DNA of 32,000 nucleotides from Candidatus Methanoperedens sp. Lineage in GTDB: Archaea > Halobacteriota > Methanosarcinia > Methanosarcinales > Methanoperedenaceae. The stretch covers positions 60,001 through 92,000 of the forward strand of contig JBGQBI010000004.1 in NCBI GenBank assembly GCA_041494705.1, given 5' to 3'. This document shows, piece after piece, positions 7,808 through 16,796 of the stretch. The position numbers were made by a program, and so were the translations under genes. How positions within the stretch are numbered: the first letter of the stretch is position 1; each line of letters starts with the position of its first letter. The notes below the pieces were generated by a model that saw only the letters and a program-made list of their open reading frames with translations, was not told the DNA's origin and made no database searches.

Positions 7808-8863
7808 TTACAACCGCATCCGCCCGATAATAATAAAATCAACTCTTGAATCGGCTACACCGTATATCATTTCTTTTCTCACACTGTTGGCAAGCCTCAC
7901 TGCACGCGAAAGCTGCTGCAGTGAAAAAACATGGGTCTCATCTATCGCATGAACGAGGTAATCCGAATGGGGCAGGCTGGATATTTCTTCAAAGCTCTTA
8001 TAAACACGAAAATGCGTGCCAAATTTAAATCCTGTCTTGGGAACAAGGCCGTTATTCCGCAGCGTCTTGTAAACAGCAAGTTTTATCATGAAATCTGATT
8101 CAATATTAGATGCAAGTCTTGAAAACTCATCAAAATCCAGCTTTTTATGATTCCTTTGTTCAATGTTCAGAATCCCTTTACCCAGAAGATAACACGATTC
8201 AACCAGTGACAACTGCAGGTGTCCTTCATCCATTGGTTTGCCAAAAAACCCCTCATTATGAAGGACTGATGAAGCCTCCGGGTCCCATACCATTACCCTG
8301 TCTTCAAGAAGGCTTGCGGTAGATGCCAGCCTGTCCAGTTTTAATTCATAAGAACCCGAGGGAATTGTTTTTTTCACTTCGTAATAGGTAATATCGCTTT
8401 CTTCATCCACTATTGCCAGAACCAGTCGTTTCTTCAGGTTTTCAACAGTGTCGAGGTGTGTTCTCAGGTCAGAAAGCAAAAGCGGTATCCTCTCGGATGT
8501 CACAAAAACAAAAAATTCTGCCGGCGTCTTGCCCGGATGCCCTCCGCGCGGATAAACCCGGAAACCCGTGACTGCAGGCTGGATAAAGTATCCGCGTTCT
8601 CTCAGGTCCTTATAAGTAATATACAATAATTCAAAATTTTTTACTAACAATGATGCTTTAAGGAAAAATTGATTAAAATCAAGTTCTTTTCCCCGGAATT
8701 CAACTTTTATTTTTCCAACATAAATAAGATAAGCGCTCTCGATTAGGGAAACTTCAAGCCTGTCATCTCTTGGACGGCCGTAAAAACTTGTGTTAAATAA
8801 TTCCTCTATCGCCTGTTTATCGAGTATTACCGCATTTTCGGTTAATTTTCCTGATATTGTCAT
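7808..8863 (-). CDS. endA: tRNA-splicing endonuclease (tRNA-intron lyase), two-repeat homodimer type
   Basis: 351 aa with a duplicated EndA unit: FYGRPRDDRLEVSLIESAYL...GFRVYPRG and FFGKPMDEGHLQLSLVESCYL...GTHFRVYK...YLVHA. Confidence 0.9.
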   Translation of the reverse strand: MTISGKLTENAVILDKQAIEELFNTSFYGRPRDDRLEVSLIESAYLIYVGKIKVEFRGKELDFNQFFLKASLLVKNFELLYITYKDLRERGYFIQPAVTGFRVYPRGGHPGKTPAEFFVFVTSERIPLLLSDLRTHLDTVENLKKRLVLAIVDEESDITYYEVKKTIPSGSYELKLDRLASTASLLEDRVMVWDPEASSVLHNEGFFGKPMDEGHLQLSLVESCYLLGKGILNIEQRNHKKLDFDEFSRLASNIESDFMIKLAVYKTLRNNGLVPKTGFKFGTHFRVYKSFEEISSLPHSDYLVHAIDETHVFSLQQLSRAVRLANSVRKEMIYGVADSRVDFIIIGRMRL

Positions 8864-14502: not shown

Positions 14503-15414
14503 TTAATCTGACAGCAGTATCTCGATTTCCATCAATTCTTCTGCGATTATAGCGGTTTCAAACACTTTTTTGGCATCATCCAGTAAAGGTGCTGCGCTCT
14601 CTGAATACCTTGAACTGACATGGGTTAAAATCAATTGTTTAACCTTGGCCTTTTTGGCAAGCCGGGCGGCTTCACCTGCGGTTGAGTGTTTTGTTTCAAT
14701 TGCCCAGTCCTTAAGCTCATCAGCAAGCGTGCCATCATGGATAAGTAAATCAGCTTTCGCACTTACTTTTTCGATGGATTCGCATGGCCGGGTATCCCCG
14801 GTATAAACTATTTTCCTGCCGGGCCGGCTTTTTCCAATAACCTCAGACGGTAAAATTGTTCTTCCCTCTATGATGACAGGTTCGCCCTTCTGGAGTTTTG
14901 AGAAAAGTGGACCAACGGGAACCCCAAGTTTGATAGCCTTTTCCCTGTTAAACCTCCCGATTCGGCTTTTCTCTTCAATAACATAACCGAGGCTTGGAAT
15001 ACCGTGGTCTGTGCCAACCGCTTTGATGAAATAATCCCCTTTATCTATTATTTCCCCCTCCTCCAGCTCATGTGCATTTATTACAAATCCCAGCTTGAAA
15101 TAACCAAGCTGCACCAGGAGGTTTACGAATTGTTTTGTCCATTCCGGGCCGTATATTTCAAGAGGCTCGGTTCTTCCGTTAAATGACATTGTCTGGATGA
15201 GCCCGGGGATTCCGAGGAAATGGTCAGCATGGAAATGGGTGATGAAGATGGAATTTATTTTCATTCCGGTCTTTGCACGCATCATTTGCTGCTGGGTGCC
15301 CTCGCCGCAGTCAAAGAGCAAAAGCTCACCTTCCCGGTTGACCAATATCGCGGAGGGGTTGCGATTTGGTGTGGGCAGGGTTCCGCCTGTGCCAAGAAAT
15401 GTTACCCGAAGCAT
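14503..15414 (-). CDS. rnz: Ribonuclease Z (tRNA 3' endonuclease)
   Basis: MLRVTFLGTGGTLPTPNRNPSAILV...LLFDCGEGTQQQM...ITHFHADHFLGIPGL is the metallo-beta-lactamase HxHxDH motif typical of short-form RNase Z. Confidence 0.92.
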   Translation of the reverse strand: MLRVTFLGTGGTLPTPNRNPSAILVNREGELLLFDCGEGTQQQMMRAKTGMKINSIFITHFHADHFLGIPGLIQTMSFNGRTEPLEIYGPEWTKQFVNLLVQLGYFKLGFVINAHELEEGEIIDKGDYFIKAVGTDHGIPSLGYVIEEKSRIGRFNREKAIKLGVPVGPLFSKLQKGEPVIIEGRTILPSEVIGKSRPGRKIVYTGDTRPCESIEKVSAKADLLIHDGTLADELKDWAIETKHSTAGEAARLAKKAKVKQLILTHVSSRYSESAAPLLDDAKKVFETAIIAEELMEIEILLSD

Positions 15415-15459
15415 AAGGGGCTAATTTGTGGCTTGGGATTTAAATAATCCGCTTATTGC

Positions 15460-15475
15460 AAAAATATAAAAAATA
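15460..15475 (-). promoter_or_regulatory. T-rich tract directly 3' of tRNA-Tyr: candidate oligo-T terminator and/or TATA box for rnz
   Basis: The minus strand reads TATTTTTTATATTTTTG immediately after discriminator A73. It lies about 45-60 nt upstream of the rnz ATG (15414). Confidence 0.35.
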
Positions 15476-15644
15476 TCCCGCCTCCCAGACTCGAACCGGG
15501 GACTTCGCGGTGCCTGCGCGGTAATGTGTGCATAAACACGACGCTGGGGTATGCTTCGCATACCCCGCATTTGATAAACCTTTCTAAAGGTTTGCACATG
15601 AACCAAACTACAGCCGCGCACTCTAGCCACTGAGTTAAGGCGGG
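15476..15644 (-). tRNA. tRNA-Tyr (anticodon GUA) with a 96-nt intron at the canonical 37/38 position
   Basis: Hand-folded. Acceptor CCCGCCU/AGGCGGG with the archaeal Tyr C1:G72 pair and A73. D arm ACUC-AGUGGCUA-GAGU. Anticodon stem CGCGG/CCGCG with loop CU-GUA-G[intron]A. Variable loop AAGUC. T arm CCCGG-UUCGAGU-CUGGG. Exons are 15644-15608 and 15511-15476; the intron is 15607-15512. The mature length is 73 nt, with no encoded CCA. Confidence 0.85.
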
Positions 15645-15737
15645 ATTGCCTTTGAATAAGCACAAATATACTTAACCCTTTCTTTCTTTTAGGCGATAAA
15701 TTAAAGTCCACACACTGATATTTAGGAACAACCCTGA

Positions 15738-15812
15738 GGGCGCGTGGCCTAGTCTGGATATAGCGGCAGCCTCCTAAGCTGTAGATCGGGGGTTCGAATC
15801 CCTCCGCGCCCG
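15738..15812 (+). tRNA. tRNA-Arg (anticodon CCU)
   Basis: Acceptor GGGCGCG/CGCGCCC plus G73. Anticodon stem GCAGC/GCUGU with loop CU-CCU-AA. Variable loop AGAUC. T arm GGGGG-UUCGAAU-CCCUC. The D stem is weak in my hand fold: only G10:C25 and C11:G24 pair. Confidence 0.8.
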
Positions 15813-15870
15813 TAAAAACAATATCATGGTGGCTTTCTATTTTATTCTGGATAGATGGTCATAGGAAATT

Positions 15871-16021
15871 AACCACAGAGAACACAGAGCGCACAGAGAG
15901 TTGTTGCTTTTCTCCGTGTAAACCTTTATCAAAGGTTTATCAAACGAAGGGATATAGGGTGCTCCCTATATCCCAACACTGCGCAAGCCGAAGTCTCGGC
16001 TTCTCTGCGCCCTCTGTGGTT
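15871..16021. mobile_element. MITE-like non-coding repeat element, copy 2
   Basis: Left end AACCACAGAGAACACAGAGCGCACAGAGAG (15871-15900) is inverted at the right end as CTCTGCGCCCTCTGTGGTT (16003-16021). Internal hairpins are AAACCTTT-ATC-AAAGGTTT (15920-15938), GGGATATAGGG-TGCT-CCCTATATCCC (15949-15974) and GCCGA-AGTC-TCGGC (15988-16001). Confidence 0.65.
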
Positions 16022-16052
16022 TTTGAAACCAGAATATAGTAAAAGTCTCATA

Positions 16053-16796
16053 TCATGATTGGCGGGAAGCCAGATGAGCCGCAATCTCGTTTACCGCATC
16101 GGTCAGGTTTTTCCGGTTATCGAATTCATCGACTAACCTAAGCAGCGCATTTTTTTCGAAGTTTTCCAAATCTTCTGCGAATTTGGATATGTTCGGTACA
16201 GCGCGGGTAATATTGTCCACGATTGTTATCGATGCGCATTGCGCTGTCCTTGAAAGAGGGTTCAGGTCGATGGCAATTACGGTTTTACCCATATCCACAA
16301 GGGCTTTGCACCTGTCCCCGTCCTCAAGAGGGACAAGCACAACATCCGCGCTGAAGATTCCGTCGCTATCCACTTTTCCGCGTTCATGAGAAATCCCGGG
16401 TATCTGCGCATCGCTTTTTGTGCATAAATTTTTTGCGCCGAGTGAGCGAAGATGCTGTATTATCTTGTTCACTCTTTCTTCTGTCCTGTGGAATAGATTG
16501 ACCTCAAGCTGGGCATTGACAAGCCCGCTTAGCTTTATGATTTCACCGGGAACAAGGGCTGCAACATTCCCATTGACCGAGATGGCAGGCTTTTTTGCAA
16601 GGAGCAGCGCCGCTGCCGCCACTTTTTCAGCCTTCAATGCGCTTTCCGTGGTCTTTTCCCCGATTAAATAATCAAATGCCTCGCCGCGCCCCTGTGCAAT
16701 CAGCCCGTGTATGCTCGTTATGCCTTTTTCAACGCCTTCTACTGTCAATTCGCGCGTCATCAGGGATTCATATCTGGGATGGTTTTTTGGTATCAT
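16053..16796 (-). CDS. 4-phosphopantoate--beta-alanine ligase (archaeal phosphopantothenate synthetase, PPS)
   Basis: IPKNHPRYESLMTRE...GLIAQGRGEAFDYLIGEKT...ISVNGNVAAL...AIDLNPLSRTA is the COG1701 PPS signature. The ATG overlaps the stop of the pantoate kinase gene (ATGA). Confidence 0.85.
   Translation of the reverse strand: MIPKNHPRYESLMTRELTVEGVEKGITSIHGLIAQGRGEAFDYLIGEKTTESALKAEKVAAAALLLAKKPAISVNGNVAALVPGEIIKLSGLVNAQLEVNLFHRTEERVNKIIQHLRSLGAKNLCTKSDAQIPGISHERGKVDSDGIFSADVVLVPLEDGDRCKALVDMGKTVIAIDLNPLSRTAQCASITIVDNITRAVPNISKFAEDLENFEKNALLRLVDEFDNRKNLTDAVNEIAAHLASRQS

Follow-up and report, generated by a model that had tools for sequence, protein, structure and literature searches.

The 32,000-nucleotide (nt) stretch of Candidatus Methanoperedens sp. 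DNA analysed here, called the window throughout, carries on its minus strand a tRNA-Tyr(GUA) gene interrupted by an intron of 96 nt, and we describe how this intron may have come to hold a hairpin cassette of a dispersed repeat family. A reading of the letters made without database searches (hereafter the sequence-only reading) had proposed a tRNA-Tyr(GUA) with a 96-nt intron after G37, and ARAGORN with intron detection (-i) gave the same sequence and position, tRNA-Tyr(gta) at c[15475,15645] with the 96 nt between G37 and A38. Read on the minus strand from 15644, the gene consists of a 5' exon (15608-15644, tRNA positions 1-37; CCCGCCTTAACTCAGTGGCTAGAGTGCGCGGCTGTAG), the intron (15512-15607) and a 3' exon (15476-15511, positions 38-73; ACCGCGAAGTCCCCGGTTCGAGTCTGGGAGGCGGGA), with a T-run directly 3' of the gene and a TATA-like box, TTAAGTATAT, about 27 nt upstream. 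Once the 96 nt are taken out at this canonical 37/38 site the cloverleaf forms, and the C1:G72 pair that had been proposed was found in the exons together with A73. Default ARAGORN and Rfam at its gathering threshold reported only the neighbouring tRNA-Arg(CCT) and no tRNA-Tyr; the gene was missed because of its intron, which is a limitation of the tools and not evidence against the gene. The identical 96-nt intron is present in two independent assemblies, a 2.07-Mb contig of the JGI metagenome 3300053059, from which the window comes, and a Logan assembly of a different run.

The tRNA-Tyr intron across Methanosarcinales

In L072, a metagenome contig (relatives and other contigs are cited by their L numbers), the RNase Z-like gene that follows tRNA-Tyr in the window is not found downstream of it. 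As synteny with this gene fails there, the genome scan, with one genome per GTDB species, was built on the tRNA-Tyr 3' exon. The scan returned 118 loci, exactly one match to the exon pattern in each of the 118 assemblies, and all of them belong to Methanosarcinales (Methanosarcina, Methanolobus, Methanococcoides, Methanosalsum, Methanoperedens and others). An intron is present at 37/38 in 118/118 of these tRNA-Tyr genes and its ends are conserved in every locus (5' T[AT][TC]GG...ATG[TC]G; 3' ...CGCGCAGGC), next to a 5' exon that is near-identical across 113 Methanosarcinales genomes. Its length is 35-47 nt in 109 of the 113 complete genes; the other four have 64, 96, 96 and 97 nt, and L072 has 133 nt. 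These long introns, together with that of the window, are confined to one subclade of the Methanoperedenaceae, and about 20 other species of the family, including M. nitroreducens Mnv1, have introns of 36-40 nt. The comparison of related genomes that the sequence-only reading had suggested as a check thus finds the window intron to be 2-3 times longer than those of 109 relatives. Judged from these sequences, the 37/38 intron is ancient and common to all Methanosarcinales, and its ancestral form is a hairpin of about 37-40 nt.

To describe the splice motif, pairs were counted on an alignment of the anticodon arm and intron of 78 distinct Methanosarcinales sequences. The bulge-helix-bulge (BHB) register that had been folded by hand was kept, with C32-U35 facing G94-G91 of the intron between the bulges A36 G37|U1 and G95 C96|A38. 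All four pairs of this central 4-base-pair (bp) helix are present in 78/78 sequences, and the intron partner GCAG (i91-i94, 15514-15517) is invariant. The 3' bulge is made up of GC at 15513-15512 and A38, and its two intron bases vary freely (GC, TT, AA, AC, GT, AT). Canonical archaeal introns likewise have the first two anticodon bases inside the central 4-bp helix (PMC4090602). The anticodon stem, which forms helix h, is near-invariant, with one non-pair in 390 cells, and the intron-side helix (h') has two to four pairs (77/78, 78/78, 56/78 and 28/70), the first two showing U:G/C:G and G:C/G:U exchanges; a conserved non-pair separates h' from the 5' bulge. Covariation is seen in the apical stem, where one pair is CG in 40 sequences and UA in 30, and another is GC in 24, CG in 23 and AU in 22. 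Overall, 91% of the cells are paired, against 19-61% after the 3' partners are slid, and double-sided changes account for 84 cells, compared to 30 +/- 10 in shuffles. With its exons, BHB, promoter-like box and terminator, the tRNA-Tyr gene appears intact, and the best reading of the sequences is that it functions and is the only tRNA-Tyr gene of its host, a Methanoperedens-like archaeon, the single-copy status being observed in relatives.

A hairpin cassette inserted in the apical loop

Alignments of the long introns show that their extra sequence is one contiguous block in the apical loop, placed between CATGTGC and (TTTAT)GCACACAT. These two flanks are the arms of the ancestral intron hairpin, the 5' arm CATGTGC (15594-15600) being found in all short-intron relatives and the 3' arm GCACACAT (15524-15531) being placed by alignment and covariation. 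The closing stem ATGTGC/GCACACAT that had been noticed around the repeat module is therefore real, and it is this ancestral hairpin. The inserted cassette itself (15537-15593, minus strand) is absent in 109/113 complete genes and matches a dispersed family. It is made of hairpin 1 (AAACCTTT-AG-AAAGGTTT, 15593-15576), a linker (ATCAAATGC, 15575-15567), hairpin 2 (GGGGTATGC-GAA-GCATACCCC, 15566-15546) and a degenerate tail (AGCGTCGTG, 15545-15537); the TTTAT that follows (15536-15532) could represent either the old loop or the end of the cassette. Both hairpins appear in the minimum free energy (MFE) and centroid folds, with z of -3.3 to -4.0. No open reading frame (ORF) was found in the insert, a regular-expression search found no C (RUGAUGA) or D (CUGA) box in the intron, in agreement with the sequence-only reading, and Rfam at E<=10 over 15350-16150 gave no match on the intron or on the nearby transposable element described below, and no snoRNA family.

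The inserts of L133, L225 and L221 share the departures of the window copy from the family consensus (ATCAAATGCGGGG, CCCCAGCGCTATGTTTAT), and these common idiosyncrasies indicate that the four inserts are orthologous; a single insertion event behind them is supported by the sequences. The 64-nt intron of L212 holds the same insert without hairpin 2 (ATCAAATG^TGTTT) and is an internal-deletion derivative, and the intron of L072 keeps hairpin 1, followed by three other hairpin modules. The nearest genomes, L133 and L182, carry the label Candidatus Methanoperedens sp. and are about 91% identical to the window over the region. L182 and L215 (~91% nucleotide identity) have no insert: their intron is 40 nt long with the loop TTTATT. 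In a tree of RNase Z, whose orthologues in 18 loci served as phylogenetic marker, a clade I with 100% support has only short introns and long introns occur only in clade II, where the window, L182, L215, L133 and L225 form a tight clade with 99% support. As short introns are found in clade I and in the outgroups and long ones only in clade II, the insert is the derived state, and among very close relatives it is lost or polymorphic.

A dispersed family of hairpin modules

The sequence-only reading had compared the interior of the intron with an intergenic copy about 270 bp away and had set the disappearance of this similarity under statistical alignment as a test. The similarity holds, with 26/29 positions identical and a score of 41 against 14.3 +/- 2.1 (maximum 27) for shuffled sequences, and the matching intergenic stretch begins at 15916 instead of 15917. 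The explanation offered for hairpin 2, that compensatory changes had kept its pairing between the two copies, does not stand: among the matches listed, the intron hairpin 2 has exactly the sequence of the most frequent variant of the family, and the intergenic variant was seen only once, so that we are dealing with a common and a rare variant and not with the co-evolution of two copies.

A metagenome scan with hairpin 1 and the linker returned at least 120 stretches, which fall in two classes of matches. Class A comprises about 40 contigs among the matches listed, on which perfect palindromes of several kinds follow one another in no constant order: hairpin 1 and a variant of it with AAACTTT, at times repeated in tandem, GGGGTATGCnnnGCATACCCC, ATAAAGCGAGGTGTCGCTTTAT, TAAACCGAAGTTTCGGTTTA, GCCCTCCCGAGGCGTGACTCGGGAGGG and ACGTATGGCnnnGCCATACGT. 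Class B, found in other organisms, is considered below with the promoter hypothesis. In 52/116 distinct copies (both classes, among the matches listed), ATCAAA is succeeded by a perfect hairpin with 7 bp or more, against 0.6% of shuffles. The dispersed modules sit in intergenic DNA in both orientations, and their left flanks are heterogeneous (ATGA, GTGC, GTGT, ACGT...), again among the matches listed. Within the same set, the intron flanks never accompany a dispersed copy and the junction CATGTGC|AAACCTTT is confined to tRNA-Tyr genes, which argues that the cassette passed from the genome to the intron instead of in the opposite direction. Orthologous sites can carry different module strings after an identical hairpin 1 (L008 versus L086; the window versus L072 introns), which points to a rapid turnover of modules, either through insertions and deletions that followed one another or through recombination among copies. 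The cassette was absent from the viral contigs searched, and clustering of the ORFs of 39 cassette-bearing contigs revealed no recurrent transposase or neighbour protein, the largest cluster being made of frames through the repeats themselves. The ends of the cassette (AAACCTTT... and ...CGGCTT or the degenerate tail) are not inverted repeats, and no duplication was seen at its insertion in the intron or in the local transposable element.

Two further observations were made on this family. In a number of strings (L007, L021, L031, L090, L102, L055, L071, L013/L059, L034, L063), the last hairpin ends in ...GCTTTATGA, the ATG of which is the start codon of a long ORF, and a second (TT)ATGA is present at the left boundary of the string, so that these elements sit exactly at gene starts with the start codon regenerated. 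Short-read contigs L003, L196, L144 and L002 start or end in or beside the tRNA-Tyr intron or tRNA-Arg, which is consistent with these repeats breaking the assemblies of such genomes. The open-access literature gave no description of the hairpin family, nor of a miniature inverted-repeat transposable element (MITE) inside an archaeal tRNA intron, and this mosaic family of hairpin modules of Methanoperedens-type genomes is apparently undescribed.

Local transposable elements and neighbouring genes

The intergenic copy that was compared with the intron lies within a 223-nt MITE (15827-16049, plus strand), between the stop codon of pps (phosphopantothenate synthetase) and tRNA-Arg. This element has terminal inverted repeats (TIRs) in its extended ends (TGGTGGCTTTCTATTTTATTCTGG / CCAGAATATAGTAAAAGTCTC), a 6-bp target-site duplication (TSD), ATATCA, at 15821-15826 and 16050-16055, no ORF and more than one copy, as expected of a MITE. 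Its site is empty in L221, L182, L215, L219 and L072 and is filled at the same position in L225. The right-hand ATATCA contains the phosphopantothenate synthetase stop codon, and the duplication regenerates this TGA (read on the minus strand). Nested in the MITE is an 83-nt cassette (15919-16001, plus strand) composed of hairpin 1, ATCAAA, the hairpin-2 variant, AACACTGCG and hairpin 3, and the orthologous MITE of L225 lacks precisely these 83 nt; the unit must then have been gained or lost on its own. The cassettes sit in the central loop of the MITE, after ...CCGTG, and in the apical loop of the intron, after ...CATGTGC. The unit is multi-copy (about 40 contigs among the matches listed) and varies in presence at the MITE site and in the intron. 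As it lacks TIRs and any evident TSD, it is no MITE in its own right, and the shared unit that had been called MITE-like is more accurately a TIR-less cassette nested in a local MITE.

A second MITE with the same type of TIRs (AACCACAGAG...CCGTGGTT...CCAGAATAAAATA) lies at about 795-1091 on the plus strand (boundaries approximate); it has internal heptamer repeats of the CACGGAT type and no hairpin cassette. In L133, a TIR element with heptamer repeats of the CTTTGCG type is placed between tRNA-Arg and tRNA-Tyr, and in L219 (680-1000) a TIR element of the CACGGAT type, with a reversed hairpin cassette, is placed between tRNA-Tyr and RNase Z. In this clade, the region of tRNA-Arg and tRNA-Tyr is a hotspot for such insertions.

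The divergent neighbour of tRNA-Tyr is tRNA-Arg(CCT) (15738-15812, plus strand; ARAGORN and Rfam, 59.3 bits). The RNase Z-like metallo-beta-lactamase gene (14503-15414, minus strand; Pfam Lactamase_B and Lactamase_B_2) lies directly downstream and starts 62 nt past the tRNA; in many Methanoperedenaceae, this gene for a tRNA 3'-processing enzyme adjoins the intron-bearing tRNA-Tyr on the same strand. The genome also encodes its splicing endonuclease within the window: EndA (7808-8863, minus strand; 351 amino acids) has the tandem-duplicated, alpha2-type architecture, with two tRNA_int_endo_N and two tRNA_int_endo Pfam domains called on the L001 gene 16552-17607, which corresponds to window positions 8863-7808.

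Origin of the insert

Based on these observations, we propose that an old canonical intron was more than doubled by a selfish mobile hairpin cassette in its splicing-protected apical loop, a reading to which we give a probability of about 0.82. The invasion by a mobile element that the sequence-only reading had offered as one of two possibilities is thereby favoured by the ancient short intron in the outgroups, the confinement of the block to one subclade, the dispersed family and the presence or absence of the same cassette inside an orthologous MITE. The starting point would be the ancestral hairpin intron of about 37-40 nt, in which the GCAG at the 3' end and C32-U35 would make the BHB for an alpha2-type EndA. 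A non-coding cassette of about 57-62 nt, coming from the dispersed mosaic family, would then have inserted in the apical loop in one Methanoperedenaceae subclade. Because some 20 nt of stem separate the insertion from the splice sites, and because the cassette forms a fold of its own, the BHB would be left undisturbed. The tRNA-Tyr precursor would be transcribed from its own promoter, the alpha2 EndA would cut both bulges, and RtcB would join the exons and probably circularise the 96-nt intron, as exon ligation and intron circularisation by RtcB are established for archaeal introns in general (PMC4090602). The cassette would in this way be removed at the RNA level with every splicing event, which would explain how an insertion in an essential gene survived. 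Lineage by lineage, the insert would later have decayed, been partly deleted, remodelled or lost, and it would have no function of its own.

A number of points weigh against this proposal or limit it. Intron base 2 never pairs with C90 and the intron-side helix is offset by one position from the bulge, so that on sequence the splice motif is near-canonical, not textbook. The RNAfold MFE structure recovers the cloverleaf arms, both cassette hairpins and the closing stem without the BHB, and this is true with the insert present or removed, and for Methanosarcina precursors too; the BHB claim thus rests on the comparative data. In favour of the proposal, a fold constrained to the BHB lies +3.4 kcal/mol above the MFE whether the insert is kept or removed in silico; on this folding model, the insert makes no structural difference to the splice motif. 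The inner nodes of the RNase Z tree have only 59-75% support, and the state of L182 and L215 is either a loss or a retained ancestral empty state combined with recombination; the TTTATT loop is also found in the more distant L177. Finally, in the four orthologous inserts the stems vary less than the unpaired parts (3/34 versus 7/29 positions, p=0.17, counted by hand as the MAFFT alignment misplaces a 1-nt indel and inflates stem variation), and a weak constraint on the cassette hairpins is possible.

Another explanation would make the insert a functional RNA, domesticated in the intron like the box C/D guide of tRNA-Trp introns and acting in trans after splicing as a structured, probably circular molecule. 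This explanation, which we regard as unlikely, can draw on the two stable predicted hairpins (z -3.3 to -4.0), on the retention of the insert in at least five species, on stems that change somewhat less than loops and on the small RNAs known inside archaeal introns (PMC4090602). However, the stem-versus-loop contrast is not significant, the searches of the intron gave no C/D boxes and no Rfam match, the stems have mismatches or deletions in L133, L221 and L225, and the same modules are scattered between genes in both orientations among the matches listed. The insert is also absent in L182 and L215, without hairpin 2 in L212, and provided with a different set of modules in L072; its loss or truncation in such close relatives makes it look dispensable and argues against an essential role. 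A family born in the intron, whose excised RNA was copied back into the genome, seems highly improbable, even if such an intron would be highly transcribed and released as a stable RNA, and even if intron transposition is documented in Thermoproteales (PMC4033280). On that account, the genomic copies would be bounded by the BHB halves or by TTTGGTTCATGTGC / GCACACATTACCGCGCAGGC, but among the matches listed no dispersed copy has intron-specific flanks; moreover, the dispersed copies are the more complete ones (hairpins 1, 2 and 3) compared with an intron copy ending in a degenerate tail, and most Methanoperedens species have a short intron.

It could also be supposed that hairpin 1 and its linker (AAAGGTTTATCAAA) are a promoter (B recognition element (BRE)/TATA, the 'box A'), acting from within the intron toward the 3' half of the gene and RNase Z. 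In the class B matches of other organisms (L016, L019, L037, L043, L095, L042, L024), a near-identical palindrome followed by TTTATCAAA precedes tRNA genes of the same strand by 33-55 nt; as this is the distance of archaeal BRE/TATA elements, hairpin 1 resembles a promoter box in palindromic form, and that of the Methanoperedens cassette may be derived from box A or mimic it. The consensus of box A in methanogens is AAANNTTTATATA, which the motif resembles, and RNase Z begins only 62 nt after the tRNA. We nevertheless find an internal promoter very unlikely, as key positions of TTTATATA are not kept in TTTATCAAA, TTAAGTATAT is the genuine promoter of tRNA-Tyr, RNase Z adjoins tRNA-Tyr in relatives without the insert too, and in L219 the family element found between both genes has the opposite orientation. 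That the repeat was mis-assembled into the tRNA, or that this is a dead copy of the gene, is hardly credible: short-read contigs L003, L196 and L144 do start within the intron, but the same insertion is found with species-level divergence in six independent assemblies, which excludes an assembly artefact, the exons, BHB, promoter-like box and terminator are intact, and each related assembly has one match to the 3' exon. A more speculative extension, which we consider improbable, would make the intron the expressed 'master' copy of an undescribed archaeal mosaic-hairpin element favouring hairpin loops and start codons, either transcribed at tRNA level, excised by EndA, ligated by RtcB and released as an abundant, stable circular RNA of the family's hairpins, which might act in trans on the family, for instance by titrating a palindrome-binding protein, or serving through its box-A-like motif as an internal promoter.

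Comparison with known systems

Apart from the insert, we are dealing with a canonical euryarchaeal 37/38 intron in terms of position, 3-4-3 BHB register and the inclusion of G34 and U35 in the central helix, and, as is usual, there is one intron per gene, a tandem-duplicated EndA in the genome and a length of 96 nt that is within the 11-129 nt reported for archaeal tRNA introns (PMC4090602). It differs in being 2-3 times longer than 109 related introns by way of a nested repeat and in the conserved non-pair at the first intron-side helix position, and the 133 nt of L072 exceed the range quoted in that 2014 review (PMC4090602). On an unrelated contig, L096 (432-692, Ga0208375_1000045), we observed a tRNA-Glu(CTC) whose 37/38 intron, at 184 nt, is far beyond 11-129 nt and starts with the same palindrome and TTTATCAAA, followed by AAGGAG...ATG.

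The box C/D intron of tRNA-Trp(CCA) in Haloferax and many Euryarchaeota is similarly a long canonical intron with a structured module away from the splice sites. Unlike that intron, the one described here has no C/D boxes, no order-wide conservation and a presence or absence that changes among sister species, and its module is a genomic repeat instead of a dedicated guide RNA. Mobile-element behaviour tied to archaeal tRNA introns is also known from the transposing introns of Thermoproteales (Fujishima et al. 2010, cited in PMC4033280); there the whole intron and its BHB move between tRNA genes and positions, while in tRNA-Tyr the intron is ancient and fixed and a foreign element sits inside it.

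The family resembles the repetitive extragenic palindromes and bacterial interspersed mosaic elements (REP/BIME) and the IS200/IS605-derived palindrome-associated transposable elements (PATEs): short perfect palindromes of several types in variable order, mostly extragenic, without ORF or TIRs and differing in composition at orthologous sites (L008/L086, window/L072). It further shares with REP/BIME or IS200/IS605-derived elements the terminal hairpins, the lack of a TSD and an apparently clean loss. In contrast to these bacterial elements, the family belongs to an archaeon, the 39 cassette-bearing contigs revealed neither a RAYT nor a TnpA partner, no fixed target tetranucleotide was seen among the matches listed, and a duplicated (TT)ATGA accompanies some copies that adjoin start codons. 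The 223-nt element at 15827-16049 is, for its part, like the classical prokaryotic MITEs (TIRs, TSD, no ORF, copies, empty site), unlike the intron insert and the nested 83-nt cassette, which have neither TIRs nor an evident TSD and are passengers or nested elements.

Implications

In this system, the canonical BHB intron is known and no new splicing mechanism is involved; what is new is the nested mobile cassette and its series of gain, decay and loss. To our knowledge, archaeal tRNA introns have usually been treated as short, static spacers, their growth being thought limited to those that host box C/D guide RNAs or homing endonucleases. Our results describe a different route of growth, by a genomic repeat entering the loop of an ancient intron, of which several stages are seen within one genus-level clade of methane oxidisers (empty at about 37-40 nt, 64, 96-97 and 133 nt). 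They also expose an uncharacterised Methanoperedens repeat family that breaks short-read assemblies, nests in MITEs and is often placed at start codons. For the biology of these archaea, this would mean that an intron can grow considerably at its tip and still be compatible with BHB splicing, and that the spliced intron of an essential single-copy gene is able to shelter mobile DNA, as eukaryotic spliceosomal introns do.

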